Of a DNA stretch of 64,000 nucleotides, positions 694-39,728 are shown piece after piece. The stretch lies in the NCBI RefSeq assembly GCF_044324785.1, contig NZ_CP172127.1; one strand, given 5' to 3'. A program made the position numbers and the translations under genes. How positions within the stretch are numbered: position 1 is the first letter of the stretch; every line of letters starts with the position of its first letter. Under the pieces are notes generated by a model. The model was not told the DNA's origin. It searched no databases and saw only the letters and a program-made list of their open reading frames with translations. Source of the stretch: Escherichia coli. GTDB lineage: Bacteria > Pseudomonadota > Gammaproteobacteria > Enterobacterales > Enterobacteriaceae.

Positions 694-727
694 CAGCCCG
701 ACGAACTGTTTCGCCGGGCTGATTTTT
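694..727 (+). terminator. Intrinsic terminator after perM (hairpin plus T-run), lying between convergent perM and focB
   Basis: GC-rich inverted repeat cagcccgacgaa...ttcgccgggctg followed by TTTTT at 723-727. Confidence 0.6.
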
Positions 728-1574
728 AGGGTTCCTGACGTAAATAAATAGCCCGATAACAAATACTCACCAGCACTGCACCGCCGATAATATTACCCAG
801 CATCACCGGGAGCAGATTGGCAGTAATAAAATGGCTGACCGTCAGTGCCGGAAAATGGTCTGCGCTACTGTGCGCCAGTTGCCAGAAGGTGGTAGGGGCG
901 AAATGGCGAATGGCAATGGCGAACGGAATCACAAACAAATTGGCGATACAGTGCTCAAAACCACTGGCGACAAACAGGGTGATGGGCAAAATCATGGCGA
1001 CGATTTTGTCGCATAACGAACGTCCGCAATAACTCATCCACAGCGCCAGGCAAACCATCACATTGCACATAATGCCGAGGCTGACTGATTCAGTAAATGT
1101 ATGATGCATTTTGCCCTCGGCGCAGTGTAAAACCGCGACTCCCCACATCGCGTTTTCACTCATCACCAGCCCGGAAAACCAGATTAACAAACTGAAACAG
1201 GCAATACCTGCCAGATTACCGCAGGCCACCAGAAGTGCATTAATCAGCCATGTTCGCCAGCTAATAACGCCCCGACTTTTTGCCATCACCGTCATTACCG
1301 ACGAGGTGAACAGGCTGGTGCCGCAAACCGCCAGCAAAATAAAGCCGAGTGTAAAGCAAAGGCCTCCCACCAGATGGGTTAATGCCTGTGAAGACGGGGC
1401 ATCGGCGATAACGGTAAGGTAAAAAGTAAATCCGATCGCCATAAACACGCCTGCGGACACCGCCATTAAAAAGACCGACACTTTGCTGCGGGCAATTTTA
1501 TGGGCGGCAATCCGTTCAGCGATTGCCGCTTTTCTGGCGCTCAACTGCAAGTCGAAAGAGAGTTTGTTTCTCAT
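726..1574 (-). CDS. focB: Formate channel FocB (formate/nitrite transporter family)
   Basis: 282 aa ORF, same length as E. coli FocB; membrane protein; immediately downstream of hyfR on the same strand. Confidence 0.93.
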   Translation of the reverse strand: MRNKLSFDLQLSARKAAIAERIAAHKIARSKVSVFLMAVSAGVFMAIGFTFYLTVIADAPSSQALTHLVGGLCFTLGFILLAVCGTSLFTSSVMTVMAKSRGVISWRTWLINALLVACGNLAGIACFSLLIWFSGLVMSENAMWGVAVLHCAEGKMHHTFTESVSLGIMCNVMVCLALWMSYCGRSLCDKIVAMILPITLFVASGFEHCIANLFVIPFAIAIRHFAPTTFWQLAHSSADHFPALTVSHFITANLLPVMLGNIIGGAVLVSICYRAIYLRQEP

Positions 1575-1595
1575 GCATACTCCTGCAAAAGCAGA

Positions 1596-3608
1596 TTACA
1601 ACACCTCGCGAACCGAGATCCCCAGACGCTGCATTCGTGACAGCAGCGTGGTGCGCTTCATCCCTAATCGTGTCGCCGCGCCACGGGGCCCGGCAACAAT
1701 GCCATTGGTTTCTCGCAATACCTGAACAATGCGCTGACGTTCTTCTTCGTCATTCTCTGGCGTCGTCGGGTGCAGCAACTGCGCCATTGAACTGCGAAGC
1801 GCTGAATCTTCATTTAGCGTCGGCAGTAAACGGCTTTGTCGGACATTAAGATGTAAATTCAGACTGTTACCGCGAGTCAGTAGTACCGCTCGCTCAATCA
1901 CGTTTTCCAGCTCGCGCACGTTGCCCGGCCAGTCCCACGACATCAACTGGCGTAGCGCCTCGGTCGGGATGGCGTCAATTGCGCGATTCATATGGCGCGC
2001 CATTTTTTGCGTGAAATGCTTTGCTAAAAGAGGGATATCTTCCGGACGGTCGCGTAGCGGGGGCAATTCCAGTGGGAAGACATTCAGGCGATAAAAGAGA
2101 TCGCTGCGAAACTGGCGATCTTCAACCATTTGCCACAAATCACGGTTGGTGGCGGCAATGACTCTGACATTCACCGGGATCGTTCTACTCCCGCCGAGAC
2201 GCTCAATCTCCCGCTCCTGCAATACGCGCAGCAGTTTAGGCTGAAGTTCTAACGGCAGATCGCCAATTTCATCGAGAAACAACGTGCCGCCATCGGCAAT
2301 TTCAAAACGACCACGATGGGTATTAATCGCACCAGTAAACGCCCCTTTGTCATGACCGAATAACTCACTTTCCAGAAGACTGGCGGGGATGGCAGCGCAG
2401 TTGATTTTGACCAGTGGCTTGTCGCGTCGTGGGCTAAGTTGATGGATCGCTCTGGCGATCACCTCTTTGCCGGTTCCGGTTTCACCACAAATCAACACCG
2501 TACTGTCGCTCTTCGCCACAATATCTACCTGCTGGAGTAGGTCTTCCATTGCCTGGCTTTGATAGATAATGTCACCGACGCCCAGATTCGAAAGGAGCTG
2601 CTCGCTAAGCTGGTGGTTTTCTTGCTGCAAACTTTCCTGCAAATCGGTCATGCTGCGCCAGGCATCGGCATTGCCAACGGCAATAGCGATGCGATCGGCA
2701 ATATGTTGTAGTAGCTGGCAGTTTTCCTCACTAAAGAGAGTGGAAGAGGTATGCGCCAGCAACAATGCACCCGGTGTATGGTTGCCAAAGGTGAGCGGTA
2801 TCAGGAGCGCAGATTCGCAGCCGTTAGATGCAAGTAAGTGTAATAACGGGTCGCGTTGCCAGAGAAACAGATCGTCTGCACGGTGCGTCAAGGTCGGTTG
2901 TCGGGTTTGTAGCGTTTGTGTCAGCAATACACTTTCGCCAGGCATACTGCGTGGCAGACATGCACAATCTGAGGCGGAAAAAACGCTGCACCACAGGCTG
3001 AACTTCTCGTTCTTTCGATGATCGCCCAGTACCATACTGACTGAAGCCAGACCGAAAAAATGATGGATCTCACGAGCGACGTCAGCGATCAGATCGTCGA
3101 GATCAAGATGTGACAATACTGCATTAGTGATATCCACCAGTACCCGATGATGATCGCGATCTTTCTCCAGCAAACGCAGCGCCACCTGCTGTTCTTCATC
3201 ATTGAGCCATGATTGCAGAACCGGGGTGATTATCCGCGCCAGCCAGTTAAACAGTGTGCAATCCTGGGGAGTAAAACGGCTGCCGTGAGTGCGAATAAAG
3301 CGTAGCTCCGCCATTCCACTACTGCCGAGAAGGACGGCGTGGCGCGAATAATCGACCATCTCGCCCTGATACTCTGTTGTTGCCGTCACATCGCTGCCAT
3401 CATCATGGTAGCGGTAATAGAAGTTGCTTTTGAGAACATGCAGTTCAATAAGTTGTACCGGGCTGAACGGCGGCGGCAGCGGGATGAAGGCGCGTAATAA
3501 AGACGCCTTGCCGTGTTTCTGCGCTAACCGCTCCGCGAGCATTCCGTTTACCGCTTCAATTGTTATTCCTTGCGGCGGGGCAAACATCGCCTCGTCTGAC
3601 ATAGCCAT
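1596..3608 (-). CDS. hyfR: Sigma-54-dependent transcriptional activator HyfR (FhlA-like)
   Basis: ORF contains Walker A GETGTGKE and the sigma-54 interaction motif GAFTGA plus a C-terminal HTH; 670 aa from the ATG at 3608 (the ORF track begins one codon earlier at TTG). Confidence 0.93.
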
Positions 3609-3637
3609 CAACAGTCCTTATTAATGAGAAATCCTTC

Positions 3638-4051
3638 TCACGCAATTTTTCTGGCCATCAGATAGATGGCCGGTTCCTGCACAATTTCATCCAACAGATG
3701 AATGAATTGAATGCTACGCGCCTGCCACACAGACGTCGCGTCATCTGCCAGTGGCGCGAATGCCCGGGTCAACAGGGCGGTGTGGCTGGCGTCAATAACA
3801 ATCTCACCAAAGGTCATCACCCCCAGCATCTTACGTCGGGCTTGCTCCTCTTCGACCTGTGCAAGCCAATCATCGTATTCCGTCTGTGGGCAGCGGAAGG
3901 CGACATTCAAACAATCAATCACGCCAACGTGATGACCGATAGCCAACGAGTAATACATTACCTGGGAGCTGTGTTCCGGCATCTCGTCGCTACTGGCGAC
4001 AAACTTTTTTCGCAGCGTCCAGAAAACAATTTCCCCGCACGCCTCAGCCAT
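3638..4051 (-). CDS. hyfJ: Hydrogenase-4 component HyfJ (HycH-like maturation/assembly protein)
   Basis: 137 aa ORF matching E. coli HyfJ; overlaps the hyfI stop by 8 nt. Confidence 0.9.
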
Positions 4052-4802
4052 GTAACCCCCGGAGAACGCGAAAGAGTTGCTGAACGATACTATTGAGACG
4101 TGGATCGTCGGCTTCGCGCAACCAGGTGTTAACCCGATTTCCTGTAGGATCGTCGCTTAAATGGCGCAGGAGCCGATCGCAAATTTCTCGCCCCTGACGA
4201 TAGCCCGCCAGCCGCCTCGCTTCTCGCTCAATGGCGATACGCTGTGATGGCGGGATCTGCGGCCATAGCGGTTGCATGGTCACCCCGGTGGGATCGCGAT
4301 AATCCACAGCGTGAATCTTCTGTTGCAGCAAACCGAGCGCCACGGCGAAACCGTGAATGGTGGCGGCCGGTGTTGGCGGGCAGCCGGGGATCCAAACATC
4401 AATGGGGACAATGGTGTCGCTGCCGCCCCAGACGCTGTAAAGATCGTGGAAAATACCGCCGCCGACACCGCACGCGCCGTAGGAAATACAGATTTTATGA
4501 TCGGGGGCAGACTCATATGCCCGAAGTGCAGGCATACGCATCGCCCGGGTGACTGCGCCAGTAAATAACAAAATATCGGCGTGACGCGGTGATGAAACAA
4601 CCTTAATGCCAAAACGTTCTGCGTCGAATACGGGTGTGATGGCGGCAAAAATTTCGATTTCGCAGGCGTTGCAGCCGCCGCAATCGACGCGATAAACGTA
4701 GGCCGAGCGACGGATATCCTGTAACAAATGCTGCTTCATCTTTTGCGTTTGCTCGTCCAGCGTGATGGGCTGGCTGACATATTGCGTAAGCACTGGACTC
4801 AT
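4044..4802 (-). CDS. hyfI: Hydrogenase-4 small subunit HyfI (NuoB/HycG-like)
   Basis: 252 aa; Cys-rich N-terminal cluster-binding region ([10 protein letters not shown]...GACGVGGG...GCPP) typical of NuoB-type subunits. Confidence 0.93.
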
Positions 4803-5344
4803 AGCTGCTCCTTAGCCACCAGCGGTACATCTGTATCGTCGTTGATCAGCGTCGCGCGTTGTTTGCACTCCGGGCAGACGCTCGCTTGCGCCCATAACAT
4901 TTCGCGGTTTTGTGGCGCATTTTGTTGCTGTGCCAACAATTCAGCAGCCAGTGCGACGGTTTTTTGCGGGGCAAACGGGCGTTCGCAACGGCTGCAACGT
5001 TGTAGATGAAACGTCGCGCGGGTATAGAGATCGGCTTTATTGGTGACGGTCAGTTCAAAGTTATTGGTAAGCTGAATGGCTCTGGTCGGGCACACTTCTT
5101 CACAACGTCCGCAGTAAATACAACGCCCCAGATAGAGCTGCCAGGTGCGCGTATTTTGCTGGTCGTCGGTCTGGATAGTCAGCGCGTTTGCCGGACAAGC
5201 ACAGGCGCAGGCACCGCAGGCAATACATTGGCTGGGCATCAGGTCCGGTTTCCCGCGAAAGCCTGGGCTGACCTCCAGTGGCGCGAAGGGATATTTCACC
5301 GTCGCGGTTCCGGCGCGCATAATAGTTTTCAGTAACTTCAGCAT
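4799..5344 (-). CDS. hyfH: Hydrogenase-4 ferredoxin-type subunit HyfH (2x[4Fe-4S])
   Basis: 181 aa; two CxxCxxCxxxCP motifs ([24 protein letters not shown]). Confidence 0.93.
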
Positions 5345-5353
5345 CTTCTGTCC

Positions 5354-7069
5354 TTACTTCAGCGGCGAACGGTTACGATCAATGCCGTAGCGTTCGATCT
5401 CTTTATACGGCACGGTTTTTGACTGGCGCTTGCGCACATCAACCAGCGTCACACGGTCGGTACAGGAGTAGCAGGGATCAAGGCTACCGATAATTAGCGG
5501 TGCGTCAGAAACGGTATTGCCGCGCAGCATGTAACGCAGCACTGGCCAGTTGGCGTAGGTGGCGGCACGACAGCGCCAGCGGAACAATTTTTGGTTATCA
5601 CCGAGCATGCTCCAGTGCACGTCTTCACCACGTGGCGCTTCAACAAAGCCCAGCGCGAATGCGTGAGGTTTATAGCTAAAGCCTTCGGTCAGCAGTGGGG
5701 TATCTGGCATGTTGTCGAGGGCAAATTCCAGCATTGCCAGCGAATCAAACGTCTCTTTGACACGGACCATCACGCGGGAGAAGACATCGCCGCCGGTAAA
5801 GGTAAACAGCGTTTTTGGAATATTGCCGTAGTCGGCGTAGGGGTGAGCAAAGCGCAAATCACGGGCAAAACCACTGCCGCGGATCAGCGGCCCTACGGGG
5901 CTATAATCACGGGCGATTTGTCGGTCGAGAATGCCAATGCCCTGAGTGCGTTGTTCCATATTCGGCGTGGCAAGCAGCATCTCTACCAGCTCCGACACGT
6001 CGGCGCGCATCTCGCGCACTAGTTTCAGCGTTTGCAGACGTTGCTCTTTGAGAATATCGCGGCGAACACCACCAATCAGATTCAGACCGTAGGTTTTACG
6101 CGACCCGGTCAGCAATTCCGCCATCGTCATCGACTTTTCCCGCACGCGGAAAAATTGCATAAAGCCGGTATCAAAACCAACAAAATGGCAGGAGAGGCCA
6201 AGGTTGAGCAAATGACTATGCAGCCGTTCGACTTCCAGCAGAATCGAGCGAATAGTATGCGCTCGTTGCGGCACTTCAATCCCCAGTGCATTTTCAACCG
6301 AGTTGGTATAGGCCACACTGTGGGCAAAACCGCAAATCCCACACACGCGGTCGGATAAGAAGGTCACTTCGTTGTAGCCCATCCGCGTTTCTGCCAGTTT
6401 CTCCATGCCGCGATGGACATAAAACAGGCGGTAATCAGCATCGACAATTTGCTCGCCATCCACAAACAAGCGGAAGTGACCTGGTTCATCGGAGGTGATA
6501 TGCAGCGGGCCGACAGGGATCACCCGCGCATCGCTGTTGCCCTCGTTGATAAACGGATACGTTTCGGTATCAGTCGTCGGTTCTGGGCGCAGTCGATAAT
6601 CCATCGCGTCTTTGCGCAGCGGATGCATATCTTCCGGCCAGTCATCGGGCAACACCAGCCGACGCTGATCCGGCAGGCCAACCGGAATCAGCCCGTACAT
6701 ATCGCGAATTTCTCGCTCGCCCCAGACCGCGGCAGGGACGCGCGGTGTGACTGACGGAAACTCCCGACTGTCGGCATCGACCAGTGCCTTCACCACGATC
6801 CAGCATTTTTCGGCCCCTTCCATAGAAAGGGCATAATAAACCGCGTAATGACCGTTAAGTGTCCGCTCGTCGTTGCCAAACAGGACTGGAAGCCAGCCAT
6901 CATGTTGATAATAAAGATAATGCACAACGTCAGGCAGCAGATTGATTTTCACCGTAATGGTGACCTGTTCAGGCGTTTGTCGCTCTTCATCCAGCACCGC
7001 GCCGGGGAACTGCGTTTTCAGGGCGGCGAGAATCGCTTCGCCACGATTTGACGATGAATTAACGTTCAC
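5354..7069 (-). CDS. hyfG: Hydrogenase-4 large [NiFe] subunit HyfG (HycE/NuoCD-like); start codon uncertain
   Basis: ORF track gives 586 aa from the ATG at 7114; a GTG at 7067-7069 preceded by GGAG (7 nt spacer) is the better-supported start; C-terminal ...DPCYSCTDR is a NiFe-ligand motif. Confidence 0.88.
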
Positions 7070-8639
7070 TGTGTTTCTCCGAAACAGATGCGGTGCCTGA
7101 AGGCAAAAAATCATGCCAGGTGCTACGTTGTGCAGGCAGGTCGTGCGTCCCTGAGAGGACTATAGTGGAAGCGCTTGCCAGGATCCTGATGACAGGTTGT
7201 GGAATATGCGTTCCCATCGCCAGCATCATGACCAGCAGAATCACCATTGGCGAGGTGGTCAACCAGCCAAGTTCACCCCGGTTAACGGCCTGCGGCGGTT
7301 TCGCCATTAACACCCGCGCAGCCATCCGTACCAGGCCCGCCAGCACCAGCGTTAACAGCAATAACAGCAGGACGATAAGCAGCAGATGATTACGCGCCAG
7401 TCCGGCGGTAACGGTCATAAATTCGCTAAGAAAAATGTTGAAGGGCGGCATCCCGGCCAGCGCCAGCGCACCGCCGCCAAACAACACGGCGGTAAATGGC
7501 ATGATTTTGAGCATCCCACAGACGACGTTGAGATCGCGCGTGCCGTACTTGAGCAGTACATTGCCGGAACCGCAGAACAACAGCGTTTTTGCCAGACTGT
7601 GGTTTAAGGTGTGCAGCAGCGCGGCAAAAATTCCCAGCGGCCCGCCAATGCCTAACGCCACCGCGACCAGTCCCATGTTCTCCACGCTGGAGTACGCCAG
7701 CAGACGCTTAATGTCCCGCTGTACCAGAATGAAAAATGCCGCCACGGCAACCGACAACATGCCGAAGATGAGCAACAACCGGTTGGGGAAATCGCTGCCG
7801 ATGGCCTGGCAAATAATGATGTAATAGCGAATAAGCACCAACAGCGCGCAGTTCAGCAATACGGCGGAGAGCAGGGCGCTGACCGGACTCGGCGCTTCAC
7901 TGTGAGCATCTGGCAGCCAGGCATGCATGGGGAATAGCCCGGTTTTAGTGCCAAAGCCAATTAGCACAAACACAAAGGCCAACAGCATTAATGTTGGGTC
8001 AAGCAAGGACGATTGCTTAAGAACCTCGCTCCAGAATATCGCCATTTCTGCCTGCGGCATAACGCTGGCGGCGTTGGCGTATACCAGCACGGTACCGAAC
8101 AGACCAAAAGCGACACCAACAGTACAAATAATGATGTACTTCCATGCAGCTTCCAGCGATGAACGCTGACCGTAAATGCCTACCAGAAACGCCGAGCTTA
8201 AGGTGGTGGCTTCGATTGCCGCCCACATCACAATCAGGTTATTGCTGGTAACAACCAGCAGCATGGTGAACAAAAACAGATGGAAGAAACCGTAGTAATC
8301 GCACAGCGTAACGGGTGAAAGCTCGCCGTGTGCCACTTCATGACGCATGTAGCCAATCGAGTAAACACCGGTGAGAAAGCCAATCACACCAAGAATGGCG
8401 AGGAACAAACCGCCCAGACCATCAATGTGAAGCCACAGTCCCGCAGCGAATATTTCTCCCGCATCAGCGGCAGTTTGGACCACCCACAGTGCCAGAATCA
8501 GCAGCAGTGTGATCCCTAAGCCATGTAGTACTGTCACCGTACGAGTCGCAGAGTGTCCCCGTTTCCGGCAGGCAAAACAGAGCAGCGAAAAAAGCAGCGG
8601 CGTGAGCAGGAGTAAAGCGAACATCACAAAATAACTCAT
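7059..8639 (-). CDS. hyfF: Hydrogenase-4 membrane subunit HyfF (NuoN/antiporter-like)
   Basis: 526 aa polytopic membrane ORF matching E. coli HyfF. Confidence 0.92.
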
Positions 8640-8643
8640 CTCA

Positions 8644-9294
8644 TTATCCCTTCAGCGCGGTCAAGTTGTTCACGTCCAGCGTGCCGTGGGTACGCCATAT
8701 TTTTCTTGCCAGTAACACCATCACAATGACGGCGAAGATGGCGTCGGTAGCGATACCAATTTCCACCAGTTCCGGTGCACGCCAGGCTAGAAGCGCCAGC
8801 ACCAGATGGGAGCCGTTTTCCATCAGGCAGTAACCAAAGATTTGCCGCAGGATATTGCGCTGGCTGACAATGCACAGCAGGCCAAGCAGAAAATGACCTA
8901 ACGCCACCGCCAGCGCCGGTTTCAGCCCGGTAGCCATCGGTAGCTTCACGGGCTGAACGACAAATGTGCAAAGCAGGACAATTAACGCCGCGAGCAGTGT
9001 CATCATTGCCGGACCGAATAACGCTTTTTCCGGGATGTTCTGGGGAATATTTCGTGCAGCGTAAGTCATGATTAACGGTACCAGCAGCACTTTGGTGATA
9101 AAGGCGCTGGCGGACCAGATCAGCAGTTGCTCTGCGGCGAATAGGCACGAGAGGGTGGCGAAAATAGACACCAGCACCAGTGACTGGCAGGCGTAAAATC
9201 CGCATGACAGGCGATAGCTTTTGACGCTAATCACAAACAGCGATGTCAGCATCATCAGTCCCGCCAGATTATTTACGATCGTAGAACCGGTCAT
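8644..9294 (-). CDS. hyfE: Hydrogenase-4 membrane subunit HyfE
   Basis: 216 aa hydrophobic ORF matching E. coli HyfE. Confidence 0.92.
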
Positions 9295-9305
9295 TCATCA
9301 TCTCC

Positions 9306-10745
9306 TTACTGCAACCAGGTCGCGGCGATTACGCTGGAAATCAGCGACATCACAATCAGTACAATCAACACCAGGCGCATTGATCCTGGCAGCGGTGCGG
9401 CATCGGCGACGGCCTCGCTCGGTTTGCCAGGCACGACGCGACCAAACCAGCGAATAAACCAGGCGAAACTGGCGACCGATTCAATCATCAGCAGAATCAT
9501 GGCGGGCAGCAGGATCCAGTACTCCACTGACAACGCAAAACCGGCAGCAAACAGCGGGAATTTACTGAAGAAGCCGTTGAACGGCGGCACGCCGGTAATT
9601 GCCAGCGCTGCCACGCAGAAACCCACGCCAGGCAACGGCAGGGTGTGCAATACGCCACGCAGACGCGGCAACAAGCGCGTGCCGCAGCTGTAACTCAGCG
9701 CACCTGCTACAAGGAAAAACAGGCTTTTAGCGAACGCGTGGTTGACGATGTAGGCGATGCTACCCTCCAGCGCCAGCCGCGAGCCGAAGATGGAGAGCGA
9801 CAAGCCGAAAAACATCCAGCCAAGTTGAGTGATGGTCGACCAGGCCAGCAACCGCTTCATATCCTGCTGTGGCAAATACATCAGGAAGCCATAAAGAATG
9901 GTGACCAGTGCCATAACCATGCCAACGCCGCCAATCACATGCGGGATATTGCCGCCGTCGATAATGGCACGGGCAAAAATGTAAACGCCCACTTTCACCA
10001 TCGATGCGGCGTGGAGATAGGCGCTGATCGGTGTTGGCGCTTCCATTGCATCCGGTAGCCACGCTTGCATCGGTAGCTGGGCCGATTTCCCCCACGCGGC
10101 AAACAGGATGCCACCATAAACCAGATAGCGTGCGTCGCCGTGTAACTCGCTCATCGCGCTGAGCGCAAACGTTCCGGTCTGCAAAAACAGCGTGGCGGCG
10201 GCAAGATACAACCCCAACGAACCGATATGAGTGATAAGCAACGCTTTTAGTGCTGAACGCTGCGCTTTATCGCTCTGGTAATAACTGATCAACGCCCAGG
10301 AGCAGCCGCCCGTAATTTCAAAAAACAACAACTGACCGAGCAGCGTCGAGGAGAGTACCAGTCCCGCCATCGCGCCGATAAAAACCAGCAAAAATGCGTA
10401 ATAACGATTCGTGCCGTTATGCGGGTGTTCGCGATTTTTATCCGTCAGATAACCCGTGGAGTAGATCGTGACCAGCAAACCGAGGAACACCACCACAAAC
10501 AGAATCAGCGTACTCACGCGATCAATGACCAGGCCAAACAACGCCACATCCCCCACGTTGACCAACGTCAACGTGACGGCAACTTTATCGGCCTGATAAA
10601 ACGCGGAGATCAGCGACAACATGCACAGCGTGGTCAGCGCGGCGAACAAAATCCCCCATTCGGCGGCCCGACGTTGTGGCGAAAACGAAACGACCAGTGC
10701 GCCGATAAAAGGCAGCAATAACGTCGTCAGAGCAAGATTTTCCAT
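9306..10745 (-). CDS. hyfD: Hydrogenase-4 membrane subunit HyfD (NuoM/antiporter-like)
   Basis: 479 aa polytopic ORF matching E. coli HyfD. Confidence 0.92.
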   Translation of the reverse strand: MENLALTTLLLPFIGALVVSFSPQRRAAEWGILFAALTTLCMLSLISAFYQADKVAVTLTLVNVGDVALFGLVIDRVSTLILFVVVFLGLLVTIYSTGYLTDKNREHPHNGTNRYYAFLLVFIGAMAGLVLSSTLLGQLLFFEITGGCSWALISYYQSDKAQRSALKALLITHIGSLGLYLAAATLFLQTGTFALSAMSELHGDARYLVYGGILFAAWGKSAQLPMQAWLPDAMEAPTPISAYLHAASMVKVGVYIFARAIIDGGNIPHVIGGVGMVMALVTILYGFLMYLPQQDMKRLLAWSTITQLGWMFFGLSLSIFGSRLALEGSIAYIVNHAFAKSLFFLVAGALSYSCGTRLLPRLRGVLHTLPLPGVGFCVAALAITGVPPFNGFFSKFPLFAAGFALSVEYWILLPAMILLMIESVASFAWFIRWFGRVVPGKPSEAVADAAPLPGSMRLVLIVLIVMSLISSVIAATWLQ

Positions 10746-10761
10746 ATTCCGTCAGTGCTCC

Positions 10762-11709
10762 TTACAGACCGGTTAACCAGAAGACCCAGGCAAGCGCAGC
10801 AAGGCTGAAGCCAAGCCAGGTCACATGGTGAATGAGTAAAAAACGCCCGCGTGCCAGCGTGTTTTCTGCGATTGAGGCCAGAACAAAAATCAGCAAAACC
10901 TTGAGCAGCGTAACGATAAGTGAAGTCAGCAGGCAGGTGAGAGAAAGCTCTTGCGCGCGCCCAAAGGGCAAAAACAGGGCCACAAACAGTGATGCCATCA
11001 CGACCTGTTTCAGCCCCAGCCCCAACTTCGCCAGCGCCAGCCCGGCACCGGAATATTCGGTCAGCGGGCCTTCCTGTAATTCCTGTTCTGCTTCAGCAAC
11101 ATCAAAGGGAATTTTTCCCATCTCAATGAAGCAGGCAAAACCACAGGCCAGTAACGCCAGTACGGTGGTTAGCGGCGAGTTCCAGCCCGTCGCCAGCGTC
11201 TTGCTGATCATCTCGATATGCGTGGAATCCGCTATCAGCGCCAATACCAGCAGTGAGAGAAGGAGCATTGGTTCGACCAGAATGCCGAGCGTCAACTCGC
11301 GACTGGCACCGACTCCCGCAAACGGGCTTCCGGTATCCAGCCCGGAAAGAGCAAAGAAAAAACGAAACAGGGCAAGAAGATAGATAAGGGTGATCAGATC
11401 GCCGCCGCCCGCAAAAGGGGAAACAGTAATAAATAGTGGTAGGGCCATCGCCAGCACCAGCATGCTGCTGATTAATACCCACGGCATCAGGCGGAACATC
11501 AGACCTGAAGATGTCGGCGCAACTTCCTGGCGTTTAAACAGTTTGTGGATATCGCGATAATCCTGCCAGATCCCCGGTCCGCGACGGGAGTGCATACGCG
11601 CGCGTATCTGCCGGGAAATCCCCGTAAAAAGCGGGGTTAGCACCAGCAGAATCACGGCCTGTGCTAACGCAAAAATGATCAGATATCCGTCGCAAAGAGT
11701 TTGTCTCAT
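10762..11709 (-). CDS. hyfC: Hydrogenase-4 membrane subunit HyfC (NuoH/HycD-like)
   Basis: ORF track 322 aa; the second ATG (MRQTLCDGY...) gives 315 aa as in E. coli HyfC. Confidence 0.9.
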   Translation of the reverse strand: MRQTLCDGYLIIFALAQAVILLVLTPLFTGISRQIRARMHSRRGPGIWQDYRDIHKLFKRQEVAPTSSGLMFRLMPWVLISSMLVLAMALPLFITVSPFAGGGDLITLIYLLALFRFFFALSGLDTGSPFAGVGASRELTLGILVEPMLLLSLLVLALIADSTHIEMISKTLATGWNSPLTTVLALLACGFACFIEMGKIPFDVAEAEQELQEGPLTEYSGAGLALAKLGLGLKQVVMASLFVALFLPFGRAQELSLTCLLTSLIVTLLKVLLIFVLASIAENTLARGRFLLIHHVTWLGFSLAALAWVFWLTGL

Positions 11710-11719
11710 GGTGATTTCC

Positions 11720-13738
11720 TTAGACGGCAATAGCGATTAGCAGCACAACCAGTGCGGCGATCACATACAGGCAATAGAGACGAAAGTCGCCGCTTTGCAG
11801 ATGCTGTATTTCTTTGGCCAGCCGTTGGGTGGCGCTCACGATGGGGCGGATCACCCGCTCATCCCAGAAGGGTTCTGTGCTCTGAGCCCTGGCGGTGATG
11901 TGCGCAAGACCTTTATTTAGCTTCAGCGTAGGGTCGAGCTGTTGTCGTAGACGAAATAGCGCAGAAAAGACCACACGCAGCGGCTGCATCACGCCATTGC
12001 CTGACGGGGCCATCGCATTATCCCAGCCGTAGCCGCATGCCCAGGCATCTCCTGTGCGACGAAACGCTGCGCGGCGCGAACGACGCCACAGCCAGTAAAG
12101 GCCAGGCAGCAAAGGCATCGCCAGTAGTAACAGCAACAGTAATGAGGGAGTGACCCGTGTATGAAACGTGCCGGGTACAAGTGCTATTCCGCTGGCGACA
12201 GTGACGGGAGGGGTATTGGTAAACGCATGGGCAATGTGCATTATCTTCGGTGCCAGCCAACTGGCACTAAGCGCAATGAATACGCAGAGTGCCGCGAGCA
12301 GTAGCATGGCGACGATCATCGTATTTGGCACTTCCTGTGCCTCTTCAGCGTGTGTACTGCGCGGCGCTCCACAGAAAGTAATACCGTACATTTTGGCGAA
12401 GCACATTACTGCCAGCCCACCAGTGACTGCCAGCATCACCATAGCAATAGGACCCGCAAGTTGTAGCGCTACGGCTTCCACACGACTTAGTGAGAACAGC
12501 GACTGCCAGGTGTACCATTCGCTGATAAAACCATTCAGCGGAGGAATGGCTGATATCGCGAGGCAACCAATCAGGCATGCTGCGGCTGTCCACGGCATCC
12601 GTTTTGCCAGTGCCCCCATTTTTTCCATGTCGTGGGTATGCAAACGCGAAATAATCGCACCCGCGCCGAGAAACAGCAGCCCTTTGAACAGTGCATGGTT
12701 GAGCAAATGAAACAGCGCGCCGAGCAGTCCAACCACGGTGAGCAGCGGGTCGTGCAGTGACAGACCGACCATCGCCACACCGACCGCCAGCAAAATAATG
12801 CCGACGTTTTCGACGGTACTCCAGGCCAGCAGCCGTTTGATATCCTGTTCCGCCAGCGCATACAGCACTCCCAGGAGCGCGGAGATTGCGCCGATCGCCA
12901 TCACCAGAATGCCCCACCACAGCGGCAAACCCGTTTGCGCCAGCAGGTCCATCGCTACTTTCAGGATGCCGAAAATACCGATTTTGACCATTACGCCAGA
13001 CATCAACGCCGAAGCGTGCGATGGTGCGGCAGGGTGAGCGCGTGGCAACCAGCTGTGCAACGGCATCATCCCGGCTTTCGCGCCAAAACCGAAGAAGGCC
13101 AGCAGGAACACCGCCGACGCCAGCCCCGGAGAAAGTGAAAGCGTGCGGAAACTGGCAAAATCGAGGCTGCCGCTTTCGCGCCACATCAGCAAGAAGGCGA
13201 TCATAATCAGCACCGATCCGGCGTGGGCGATAAAAAAGTAGAGCATGCCAGCGTTGATTGACGTTTTATCCTGCCTGGCAATGACCAGAAACCAGGAAGA
13301 CAGCGACATCATTTCAAACAGCACGATGAACCAAAAAGCGTTATCCATCACCAGCAGGGCAACCATCGATGCGATGAAAAGATTCATAAAGAAGCCCATT
13401 GCCGCCGCGCCTTTGCCCTCGTATTCGCGCATATAAGTCAATGAATAGAGCGAACAAACCCCCACCAGCAAGGAGATAACCAACACCATAAATGCCGAGA
13501 GGCTATCCATTCGCAGGGTTAAATCGGCAAAATCAAAAGGCGTGGCAAAACGGGCGACTAAAGTTACGCCTGCATGTAATTGCGTAATTCCGCTGATGAT
13601 GCCAATCACGCCGCCCACCAGCGATGTGATGCCGGAAAGCTTAATAGTCAGTCTGTCCAGACCGAGTAAAAACAGCGAAGCCAGACTGGCAAACAGATAG
13701 AGGATCAGCGACCAGGTTAATAATTGCAGGGCATCCAT
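11720..13738 (-). CDS. hyfB: Hydrogenase-4 membrane subunit HyfB (NuoL/HycC-like)
   Basis: 672 aa polytopic ORF matching E. coli HyfB. Confidence 0.92.
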   Translation of the reverse strand: MDALQLLTWSLILYLFASLASLFLLGLDRLTIKLSGITSLVGGVIGIISGITQLHAGVTLVARFATPFDFADLTLRMDSLSAFMVLVISLLVGVCSLYSLTYMREYEGKGAAAMGFFMNLFIASMVALLVMDNAFWFIVLFEMMSLSSWFLVIARQDKTSINAGMLYFFIAHAGSVLIMIAFLLMWRESGSLDFASFRTLSLSPGLASAVFLLAFFGFGAKAGMMPLHSWLPRAHPAAPSHASALMSGVMVKIGIFGILKVAMDLLAQTGLPLWWGILVMAIGAISALLGVLYALAEQDIKRLLAWSTVENVGIILLAVGVAMVGLSLHDPLLTVVGLLGALFHLLNHALFKGLLFLGAGAIISRLHTHDMEKMGALAKRMPWTAAACLIGCLAISAIPPLNGFISEWYTWQSLFSLSRVEAVALQLAGPIAMVMLAVTGGLAVMCFAKMYGITFCGAPRSTHAEEAQEVPNTMIVAMLLLAALCVFIALSASWLAPKIMHIAHAFTNTPPVTVASGIALVPGTFHTRVTPSLLLLLLLAMPLLPGLYWLWRRSRRAAFRRTGDAWACGYGWDNAMAPSGNGVMQPLRVVFSALFRLRQQLDPTLKLNKGLAHITARAQSTEPFWDERVIRPIVSATQRLAKEIQHLQSGDFRLYCLYVIAALVVLLIAIAV

Positions 13739-14355
13739 TAGCGTTGCTCCTGAGTGAGGGAAAGGGGATCCTCCCCGCCATTGGCAAACCAGCTTGCGGC
13801 AAGGCGCTGTTTTTCTTTCATCTGGCGTTGCAGGCTATCGTCGGTGATCAGCCGTAACGCCTTATTCGGGCAAGCGCGAACGCATGCCGGACCTTCTGGC
13901 AAGAAATCACACAGGTCGCATTTCACCGCGACGGTCTGGACACCCGGTTCCCAGCGCAGCAACGCATGTTGGGTCGACACGTTTACTTCTCCGTCTTTGA
14001 GTGAGCCCTCAGCCTGAAAAACATATTGCGCAGGGGCATTCACCGGACGGCTTCCTGAAGCGCTGATTGCGCCAAATGGGCAGACCACGGCACAAAGCTT
14101 GCAGCCAATACAGAGGCTTTCGTTGAGTTGGATCGCATCATCCCTCTGGGAGATGGCATTGACCGGGCAGACCTGCAGGCAAGGGGCTTCCTCACAGTGA
14201 TGACACACGACAGGGGCAGTGAGTGTTGACGTCTTCGCCAGGGCCAGGCGCGGGTGTTGCTGTAAACCTTGCGTTTTATGCACGTCCGAACAGGCAGCGA
14301 GACAGGTATTACATCCTGTACACCACAGTGGTTCGGCCACCACAAAGCGGTTCAT
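13738..14355 (-). CDS. hyfA: Hydrogenase-4 ferredoxin-type subunit HyfA (multiple [4Fe-4S])
   Basis: Several CxxCxxCxxxC motifs; the ATG at 14353-14355 with AGGAG 8 nt upstream gives 205 aa; the ORF-track ATG at 14392 lies upstream of the predicted transcription start. Confidence 0.9.
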   Translation of the reverse strand: MNRFVVAEPLWCTGCNTCLAACSDVHKTQGLQQHPRLALAKTSTLTAPVVCHHCEEAPCLQVCPVNAISQRDDAIQLNESLCIGCKLCAVVCPFGAISASGSRPVNAPAQYVFQAEGSLKDGEVNVSTQHALLRWEPGVQTVAVKCDLCDFLPEGPACVRACPNKALRLITDDSLQRQMKEKQRLAASWFANGGEDPLSLTQEQR

Positions 14356-14396
14356 GTCGGCTCCTTGAAAATGATATGAAACATTGCATTTCATAT

Positions 14397-14412
14397 TGCA
14401 TAAAGGATGCCA
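14397..14412 (-). promoter_or_regulatory. Sigma-54 (-24/-12) promoter of the hyf operon
   Basis: Minus-strand sequence TGGCATcctttaTGCA fits TGGCAC-N5-TTGCA with GG and GC at the correct spacing, about 40 bp upstream of the hyfA ATG; hyfR in the same operon encodes a sigma-54 activator. Confidence 0.7.
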
Positions 14413-14538
14413 GTCTGATTAATTTAATATATTCAATAAGTTATGAATTAACTGTATTCTGAACGGTACAAAAATGATGGTCATTAACGTTCAGCAAAAA
14501 ATGAATTCGACACCCGTGTCGCAGGGGAAAGCGAGAAT

Positions 14539-14552
14539 GTGATCTTGATCAC
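14539..14552. promoter_or_regulatory. Inverted repeat GTGATC-tt-GATCAC about 140 bp upstream of the hyf sigma-54 promoter; candidate enhancer or CRP-like site
   Basis: Perfect 6-bp arms; also reads TGTGA-N6-TCACg; position is typical of an enhancer-binding-protein site. Confidence 0.3.
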
Positions 14553-14607
14553 GAGAAGTGAGGTGTGCTGACCGCAAGCGCAGCCAGCACGGAATGGAGC
14601 AAAGTAA

Positions 14608-15078
14608 TCAGGCGTGTTCTTTCAGCCAGTTCAGCACAACGTCGTGGTGATTGCTGGTTTTGAAATCGTCAAAGACATGTTCGATTTTGCCATCAGCGTC
14701 AATCAGGAAGCTGATGCGATGAATACCATCGTAGGTTTTGCCCATGAAGGACTTTTCACCCCAGACGCCGAATTGTTCGCACACCTGGTGGTCCTCATCA
14801 GACAGGAGCGTAAAGTTAAGCAGCTCTTTTTCCGCAAAACGGGAGAGTTTTTCGGGTTTATCGGTGCTGATACCCAGCACATCAACGCCCGCTTTTTTCA
14901 ACTCATCCATGTTATCGCGTAAGCCGCAGGCTTGTACGGTACAGCCGGGGGTCATGGCTTTCGGGTAGAAATAAACCAGAACACGCTGTCCCTGGAAGTC
15001 GGTCAAATTAACTTGTTCTCCGTCTTGATCCGGCAAGCTAAATTTCGGTGCGATATCACCGGCTTTCAGTGGATTCAT
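14608..15078 (-). CDS. bcp: Thiol peroxidase Bcp (peroxiredoxin)
   Basis: 156 aa; peroxidatic Cys in the TPGCT context; its start overlaps the gcvR stop by 1 nt. Confidence 0.95.
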   Translation of the reverse strand: MNPLKAGDIAPKFSLPDQDGEQVNLTDFQGQRVLVYFYPKAMTPGCTVQACGLRDNMDELKKAGVDVLGISTDKPEKLSRFAEKELLNFTLLSDEDHQVCEQFGVWGEKSFMGKTYDGIHRISFLIDADGKIEHVFDDFKTSNHHDVVLNWLKEHA

Positions 15079-15650
15079 TACTTAACTCCATCCTGTTCAT
15101 CATGTTGGGAATAATTGACGACGTTAATACTGCCTTGTGCATTGAGTTCTGTACATAGGGCTTTGAACGCTTGCTCAATATTTGCTGCGTCCGCAGATGC
15201 GGGGCTGTGGGCGGTTATCTGAATATGCAACTGCGCAGCCCGTTCATTTTCAGCAGGTTGCGTGCGCGACACCAGCTCCGCAATGTTCATATGATGCGCG
15301 TCGAAAAGTGCTGTGAAGCGTTCAATTAAATGCGGGGAGTCTGCCACATCGACCTGAACCCAGACAGATGCTGGCATTGGCGGACGCGGACGCGCCGTCG
15401 TGCGCTTCATCACGATTAAAAGATCCAGCTCGGCACCTTTCAACGGTAACGTTGATTCAATCAGAGTAATGGCATTCCATGAACCGGAAAGCAGCATGAT
15501 AAACGTGAACTCTTCTCCCAGCATCGCCAGGCGACTGTCTTCAATATTACAGCCGCAACTACTGACATGACGGGTGATGGTGTTCACAATTCCAGGGCGA
15601 TCGGCACCCAACGCAGTGATCACCAGATAATGTTGCGATGACAGTGTCAA
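15078..15650 (-). CDS. gcvR: Glycine cleavage system transcriptional repressor GcvR (ACT domains)
   Basis: ORF track 212 aa from a TTG; a second in-frame TTG gives the 190 aa product (MTLSSQHYLVITALGADRPG...) known for E. coli GcvR. Confidence 0.88.
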   Translation of the reverse strand: MTLSSQHYLVITALGADRPGIVNTITRHVSSCGCNIEDSRLAMLGEEFTFIMLLSGSWNAITLIESTLPLKGAELDLLIVMKRTTARPRPPMPASVWVQVDVADSPHLIERFTALFDAHHMNIAELVSRTQPAENERAAQLHIQITAHSPASADAANIEQAFKALCTELNAQGSINVVNYSQHDEQDGVK

Positions 15651-39487: not shown

Positions 39488-39728
39488 CTGAAATATATTA
39501 GCAAAGCTTATTACTGAGTTTGCGAATAATAAAAAAAGCAGTATATAAAATATCTCGATATTATTTTATTTATATTCATGCCTCGCATATGAAAGTTTAT
39601 TCATAACAGTAAATATCTCTCCATTCTTAGTGATCTACCTCACCTTTTAAACGCGCTTGCCGAATTTTGTTATTTACTCTGACGAAAAATTGTCACGATA
39701 CACGAAAGTTTTTCACAGGCGGCGACTC

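Follow-up and report, generated by a model that had tools for sequence, protein, structure and literature searches.

The Perfect-Armed Inverted Repeat Upstream of the hyf Operon of Escherichia coli Is the Catalogued CRP Site of the hyf Promoter

Introduction

The spacer between bcp and hyfA of Escherichia coli contains the perfect-armed inverted repeat GTGATC-TT-GATCAC, which is an ordinary, known regulatory element, namely the already catalogued CRP site of the hyf promoter. With high probability, the repeat forms the core of a high-affinity CRP-cAMP site centred at -160.5 of the sigma-54-dependent promoter of hyfA, so that hydrogenase-4 is placed under catabolite control on top of its control by formate, FhlA and HyfR. 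Published data demonstrate the binding of CRP at this site both in vitro (genomic SELEX) and in vivo (ChIP-seq in ETEC H10407). The site is of practical value for annotation, as it shows where catabolite control acts on the hyf operon and sets this CRP input apart from the likely HyfR/FhlA sites of the same spacer (14508-14521, perhaps 14468-14483). All positions refer to the window, i.e., the whole stretch of 64,000 nucleotides of E. coli DNA that was analysed.

The bcp-hyfA Spacer and Its Elements

The genes bcp and hyfA, the latter being followed by the remainder of the operon up to hyfR and focB, are both carried on the minus strand; "upstream" of hyf, thus, corresponds to higher coordinates. 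Both genes are annotated by RefSeq on identical DNA of strain N3 (100% identity over 14300-14700), and the spacer separating them, when reading from right to left, comprises 252 bp. Translation of hyfA starts at the ATG at 14355, with the encoded protein beginning MNRFVVAEPLWCTGC, while the listed open reading frame of 657 nt (13738..14394, 218 aa) represents hyfA over-extended at its 5' end. The coordinates of the individual elements are compiled in Table 1.

Table 1. Features of the bcp-hyfA region, ordered from upstream to downstream of hyf.
Feature	Sequence	Position	Strand	Basis or remarks
bcp		15078..14608	-	stop at 14608
Strong hairpin just past the bcp stop, likely bcp 3' end or terminator structure		14565..14590	-	inverted repeat; RNA fold
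CRP-cAMP site, 22 bp	gaaTGTGATCTTGATCACGaga	14535..14556	none	16-bp core 14538-14553; centre 14545.5, at -160.5 of hyfAp
FhlA-type palindrome, candidate HyfR/FhlA upstream activating site 1	CGACACGGGTGTCG	14508..14521	-	inverted repeat; conservation
Invariant 16-bp block	TGACCATCATTTTTGT (TGACCATCAYTTTTGT)	14483..14468	-	centre ~-89.5; conservation
IHF-like element, one mismatch to WATCAANNNNTTR	ATTCAATAAGTTA	14431..14443	+	sequence, partly conserved; putative assignment
Sigma-54 promoter of hyfA	TGGCATCCTTTATGCA	14412..14397	-	sequence; published ChIP-seq and SELEX; conservation
hyfA CDS, 205 aa, first gene of hyfABCDEFGHIJR-focB		13738..14355	-	translation; RefSeq annotation

The sigma-54 element of hyfA carries the GG dinucleotide at 14411-14410 and the GC dinucleotide of the -12 element at 14399-14398, GG and GC being 12 bp apart, and the start site is located at about 14385-14386. 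This assignment agrees with two published genome-wide data sets, in which the sigma-54 ChIP-seq site OS23 (ATGGCATCCTTTATGCA) was assigned to hyfA (PMC4591121) and the RpoN genomic-SELEX peak in the bcp/hyfA spacer was the highest of the run performed with NtrC (PMC8743547). The promoter is also conserved in the orthologues of Citrobacter and Kosakonia.

At the opposite end of the spacer, the strong hairpin following the bcp stop codon is present in the minimum-energy fold (-26 kcal/mol) of the 92-nt post-bcp segment and is separate from the CRP site. In the same place, Citrobacter and Kosakonia have an inverted repeat rich in G+C with a T run behind it.

The initial annotation had described a perfect-armed repeat with two GATC sites within 14531-14560, roughly 140 bp upstream of the -12 element, and in these respects it was accurate. 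The repeat occupies 14539-14552, with perfect arms of 6 bp and a spacer of 2 bp, its near edge lies 140 bp from the -12 element, and the two GATC sites are found at 14541-14544 and 14547-14550. Its centre at 14545.5 is situated about 147 bp from the -12 element, corresponding to -159.5/-160.5 relative to the start site.

Identity of the Repeat as a CRP Site

Palindromes of this size are common: the window contains 20 perfect inverted repeats of the 6+2+6 type, compared to a mean of 15.7 in shuffled sequence; hence, the symmetry by itself is no evidence of function. When allowing for one mismatch, the expected number of occurrences of the exact 14-mer of the repeat is 0.13 per window. The 16-mer TGTGATCTTGATCACG (14538-14553) deviates from TGTGA-N6-TCACA by a single mismatch, i.e., it matches 9 of the 10 core bases. 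A CRP matrix was derived from 106 sites bound by CRP in vivo in ETEC H10407, with hyfA omitted, and on it this 16-mer attains 19.2 bits. This is the top score of the 64-kb window by a distance of 4.7 bits (next 14.5); of the 106 training sites, only three do better, and 2 of 200 shuffled windows attain the value.

The next-best matches to the CRP matrix in the window are TTTGACGCTAATCACA (14.5 bits), AGTGATCTACCTCACC (13.9 bits) and GGTGATGGTGTTCACA (13.2 bits), located at 9220-9235, 39629-39644 and 15573-15588; all of them fall within the score range of the in vivo sites.

The same element is found in published compilations of CRP targets. Table S4 of Shimada et al. (2011), with RegulonDB-style ECK ids, lists TCTCGTGATCAAGATCACATTC at -160.5 of hyfABCDEFGHIJR-focB, with CRP as activator (PMC3105977); the listed sequence is identical to the site in the window, and the tabulated position agrees within 1 bp with the one calculated independently here. 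Table S3 of that study places the box TGTGATCTTGATCACG beneath a CRP genomic-SELEX peak in the bcp/hyfA spacer, and hyfA is named among the known RegulonDB targets of CRP which were retrieved by genomic SELEX (PMC3105977). For ETEC H10407, Table 1 of Haycocks et al. (2015) gives hyfA as a high-confidence ChIP-seq target of CRP, the site at the peak being CGTGATCAAGATCACA (PMC4287617). With the RegulonDB site, the SELEX peak and the ETEC ChIP-seq peak all at this position, the option of a near CRP site providing a CRP input, which had been among those originally put forward for the repeat, is borne out.

The label "activator" is a curated one, taken from the RegulonDB entry as reproduced in PMC3105977. 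A search of reviews for statements on the CRP dependence of hyf yielded nothing usable. The activator call reportedly goes back to Self, Hasona and Shanmugam, who are said to have described in 2004 a requirement of CRP-cAMP for hyf expression.

The repeat might also be read as an FNR site serving the anaerobic control of hyf. GTGATCAAGATCAC matches TTGAT-N4-ATCAA in 8 of the 10 specified bases, and Myers et al. (2013) predicted it to be an FNR site, giving a matrix score of 13.04 (PMC3688515, supplementary file 6). In the same study, however, it was classified as "silent", lacking an FNR ChIP-seq peak, with overlapping signals of IHF and Fis (PMC3688515), and by this ChIP-seq result the FNR reading is largely refuted. 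Furthermore, the outer bases G and C of the repeat are those which discriminate CRP from FNR, and the orthologous site of Citrobacter sp. shows three mismatches to the FNR consensus. An FNR site is, thus, extremely unlikely.

The location of the repeat 55 nt past the bcp stop codon, and the number of about 16 palindromes of the 6+2+6 type to be expected by chance per 64 kb, would fit a terminator or RNA hairpin of bcp, or else a chance palindrome devoid of function. As RNA, however, the repeat would form a stem of only 5 bp (-3.9 kcal/mol) without a U run; the terminator scan makes no call on it, an Rfam search returned no match, and the strong post-bcp hairpin is found elsewhere, at the position given in Table 1. 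Chance, in turn, is countered by the conservation of the element and by the documented binding of CRP, leaving this reading barely credible.

Conservation and Natural Variants of the CRP Site

For the comparison of hyf promoter regions, relatives of HyfA were taken from 45 species. The closest of these, Citrobacter amalonaticus, three Citrobacter spp. and two Kosakonia, retain the bcp-hyfA arrangement, the sigma-54 promoter and, at the equivalent place, a strong CRP site, which reads TGTGATCGCAATCACA in C. amalonaticus (18.7 bits), TGTGACTAATATCACA in Citrobacter spp. (17.0 bits) and TTTGACCGCGATCACA in Kosakonia (15.8 bits). The distance of the orthologous sites from the G of the -24 element varies between 133.5 and 135.5 bp, with 135.5 bp in E. 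coli. Upon alignment, TGA...ATCACA is the only invariant part of the site, whereas the six central bases change in every lineage. This combination of invariant TGA...ATCACA with a drifting centre and drifting GATCs is indicative of a CRP footprint rather than of a Dam-dependent element or of a protein recognizing the perfect palindrome. The CRP site is absent from the more distant hyf-type operons of Atlantibacter, Dickeya, Pectobacterium, Morganella, Providencia and Serratia, which implies that the CRP input is specific to one clade.

These data also bear on the idea that the two GATCs constitute a Dam-methylation-dependent epigenetic switch in the manner of pap or agn43. In its favour, both GATCs lie inside a protein-binding site, and GATCs occupied by CRP count among the classic examples of under-methylation in E. 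coli. The GATCs are, however, not conserved, their number per orthologous site being 2, 1, 0 and 1, and in the natural variant of E. coli OkiPb01695 (TGTGATCTTGGTCACG) the second GATC has been lost with retention of TCAC. Among the 106 in vivo CRP sites, 39 contain a GATC and three contain two of them, because the CRP consensus itself is TGTGATCTAGATCACA. The GATCs of the repeat are, therefore, a by-product of the CRP consensus, and the Dam option is not supported; a literature search for a link of hyfA to GATC methylation found nothing relevant. A switch of this kind appears very unlikely.

Within E. coli, the 40-mer around the site is present in each of the 4297 hyf-carrying complete genomes, 3404 of which are at least 99% identical over the aligned part. 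It is missing from 1129 of 5426 complete E. coli genomes, and in one of these that was examined the whole hyf-focB block (698-14558 of the window) is absent. A further rare natural variant, in which the TCAC half-site is broken, occurs in E. coli 99-3165 (TGTGATCTTGAGCACG).

In the hyf-less strain AH21F008, bcp adjoins yfgO, and of the DNA upstream of hyf a decayed stretch is left, AAAAAAT...GTGTTGCAGGG...GAGAAG, from which precisely the CRP site has been lost through a gap of about 19 bp. A break of the BLAST alignments at 14554-14559 in hyf-less strains was considered as an edge of the hyf island and rejected, since the alignment shows decayed promoter DNA from which the CRP site is gone.

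HyfR, FhlA and Further Elements of the Spacer

The repeat had alternatively been proposed to be the site of HyfR or FhlA. In such a case, it would serve as an upstream activating site for these sigma-54 enhancer-binding proteins, either in place of CRP or shared with it. On an FhlA matrix of 13 published sites (PMC7658346, Table 2), whose discriminating power is low, the best match in the spacer is TGATCAAGATCACA, which overlaps the repeat and scores 10.0 bits (9.6 with flat background). A score of 9.6-10 bits equals that of the FhlA-like sites located at fdhF and hydN, and the equivalent 14-mer of Citrobacter sp. reaches 11.0. Moreover, FhlA-type palindromes are found at the same distance, i.e., 131-140 bp from the -24 G, in the hyf promoters of Dickeya, Sodalis and one member of the Burkholderiaceae. 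HyfR is said to bind to the hyf promoter region in vitro, according to work by Skibinski from 2002; no mapped HyfR site was found in the literature searched.

On the other hand, 42 positions of the window score at least as high as TGATCAAGATCACA on the FhlA matrix, corresponding to about 0.16 such matches expected per spacer. The match lacks the strong matrix positions C4 and G11, and position 11 is occupied in every orthologue by the C required by CRP and never by the G of the FhlA matrix. While the CRP scores of the orthologous sites are stable (15.8-18.8), the FhlA scores of the corresponding 14-mers range from 5.4 to 11.0. In addition, there is an FhlA-type palindrome of better conservation 31 bp further towards the promoter, and the occupancy of the repeat by CRP is experimentally documented. 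A role of the repeat as HyfR or FhlA site is, therefore, unlikely. Concerning the distance from the promoter, which had been called typical of enhancer-binding-protein sites, the description was fair, considering the 131-140 bp from -24 in the distant hyf promoters; the assignment to HyfR or FhlA derived from it finds no support, since the invariant letters are the CRP half-sites, a C stands at position 11 and the better FhlA-type palindrome is nearby.

This second element, CGACAC-CC-GTGTCG, is likewise a perfect 6+2+6 repeat in E. coli, with its centre at about -128.5. Its core, CGACAC-N3-TGYCG, is invariant in seven sequences from Escherichia, Citrobacter and Kosakonia; it retains the high-information positions G2, C4, T10, G11 and C13 of the FhlA matrix and is closely similar to the FhlA-like CGTCACTAGTGTCG upstream of hydN in K-12. 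Judging from these sequence features, the palindrome is most likely the HyfR/FhlA site of the hyfA promoter. It was also the only element on which the terminator scan made a terminator-like call, which was rejected, considering that it forms only five pairs and is conserved as DNA in an untranscribed spacer.

Since the FhlA-type palindromes of the distant hyf promoters occupy the slot of the CRP palindrome (131-140 bp from the -24 G), the CRP site may have replaced a distal enhancer site in the clade of E. coli, Citrobacter and Kosakonia. The palindromes in question, from hyf loci of Sodalis, Dickeya and Burkholderiaceae, comprise TGTCGAGGGTGACG, CGTCATTTATGACG and CGTCATAAATGACG.

Between the FhlA-type palindrome and the IHF-like element sits the 16-bp block, which is invariant across Escherichia, Citrobacter and Kosakonia save for one Y position and is a possible second site for an enhancer-binding protein. 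In E. coli only, the block is flanked by the inverted repeat CTGAACG/CGTTCAG. The IHF-like element, in turn, lies between the upstream sites and the promoter, and an IHF ChIP-chip signal has been recorded at the bcp-hyfA spacer (PMC3688515, supplementary file 6).

Alternatively, the CRP bound here could act as a class I activator on a weak sigma-70 promoter within the spacer, instead of acting on the sigma-54 promoter. The spacer was bound by RpoD holoenzyme in genomic SELEX, and a promoter ATGACC-17-CAGAAT was proposed (PMC3946193), which maps to 14484..14456 on the minus strand. A sigma-70 start near 14449, however, would place CRP at about -96.5, which does not agree in phase with -93 and -103.5, the positions of class I activation, and a consensus scan of 14300-14700 on both strands detected no sigma-70-like promoter. 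Furthermore, the putative -35 hexamer ATGACC overlaps the invariant 16-bp block, which resembles a factor site, and RegulonDB ties the CRP site to the mapped promoter of the operon, at -160.5. Activation via a sigma-70 promoter is, thus, unlikely.

Mode of CRP Action

As an input to the sigma-54 promoter, CRP bound at -160.5 would be too distant for the usual class I or class II contact with RNA polymerase. The centre of the CRP site is separated from the centre of the FhlA-type palindrome by exactly 31 bp, equivalent to approximately three helical turns, in all eight sequences analysed, and does not vary among Escherichia, Citrobacter and Kosakonia. From this position and spacing we infer an architectural role, in which CRP would either bend the DNA beside the enhancer or contact the enhancer-binding protein. 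The bend or contact would help HyfR or FhlA to assemble and, together with IHF, to loop onto the sigma-54 polymerase, by which a cAMP gate would be added to the control by formate.

In a more specific version of this proposal, the CRP site and the FhlA-type palindrome would constitute an enhancer module of fixed geometry, with CRP-cAMP directly aiding the assembly or looping of HyfR/FhlA. We put this forward tentatively, as a possibility that we consider more doubtful than probable. If it were true, the module would represent a dedicated catabolite gate for formate hydrogenlyase-2, via an undissected mode of CRP action, and might help to explain why hyf is "silent" in glucose-grown laboratory cultures.

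The same layout is encountered in K-12 at fdhF, the product of which is the partner enzyme of hydrogenase 4. Here, a CRP site known from ChIP-seq (CGTGATGGCTGTCACG, 13.3 bits) is found 33 bp upstream of the FhlA-like palindrome CGTCAAAACTGACG, the two elements being located at about -178.5 and -145.5 from the fdhF ATG. In the control regions of hyc, hyp and hydN, there was no match to the CRP matrix of at least 7 bits.

The CRP site of fdhF is at the same time the stem of a hairpin, GCCGCGTGA...TCACGCGG, which is followed by a T-rich tail and resembles a terminator belonging to mdtP, the gene upstream.

Comparison with Known Systems

The closest counterpart of the site is the CRP site of hyfAp recorded in RegulonDB and EcoCyc, which is the same element, the window strain differing from K-12 only at flanking spacer positions. 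With the consensus CRP site (ICAP, AAATGTGATCTAGATCACATTT), it shares 16 of 22 positions, including TGTGATCT.GATCAC, and both have a 16-bp core of two-fold symmetry that is bound by the dimer.

The FhlA sites of the formate regulon (hyc, hyp, fdhF and hydN; TGWC-N6-GWCA) likewise consist of a palindrome 100-140 bp upstream of the -24/-12 promoter. To these, the repeat is a partial match (9.6-10 bits), without C4 and G11, and its conserved letters are those of CRP.

At the class I and class II CRP-dependent sigma-70 promoters, such as lac and gal, the CRP sites are centred at -41.5, at -61.5 and up to -93, whereas the hyf site is at -160.5 of a sigma-54 promoter, too far out for CRP to be expected to contact the alpha subunit of the polymerase beside the promoter. 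CRP inputs are known from other sigma-54 promoters, comprising activation at prpBCDE and repression at glnAp2 and dctA. As in these systems, CRP-cAMP acts at hyf on an enhancer-dependent promoter, joining carbon status to a specific signal; in contrast to them, CRP at hyf has its site on the upstream side of the enhancer, with an effect curated as positive.
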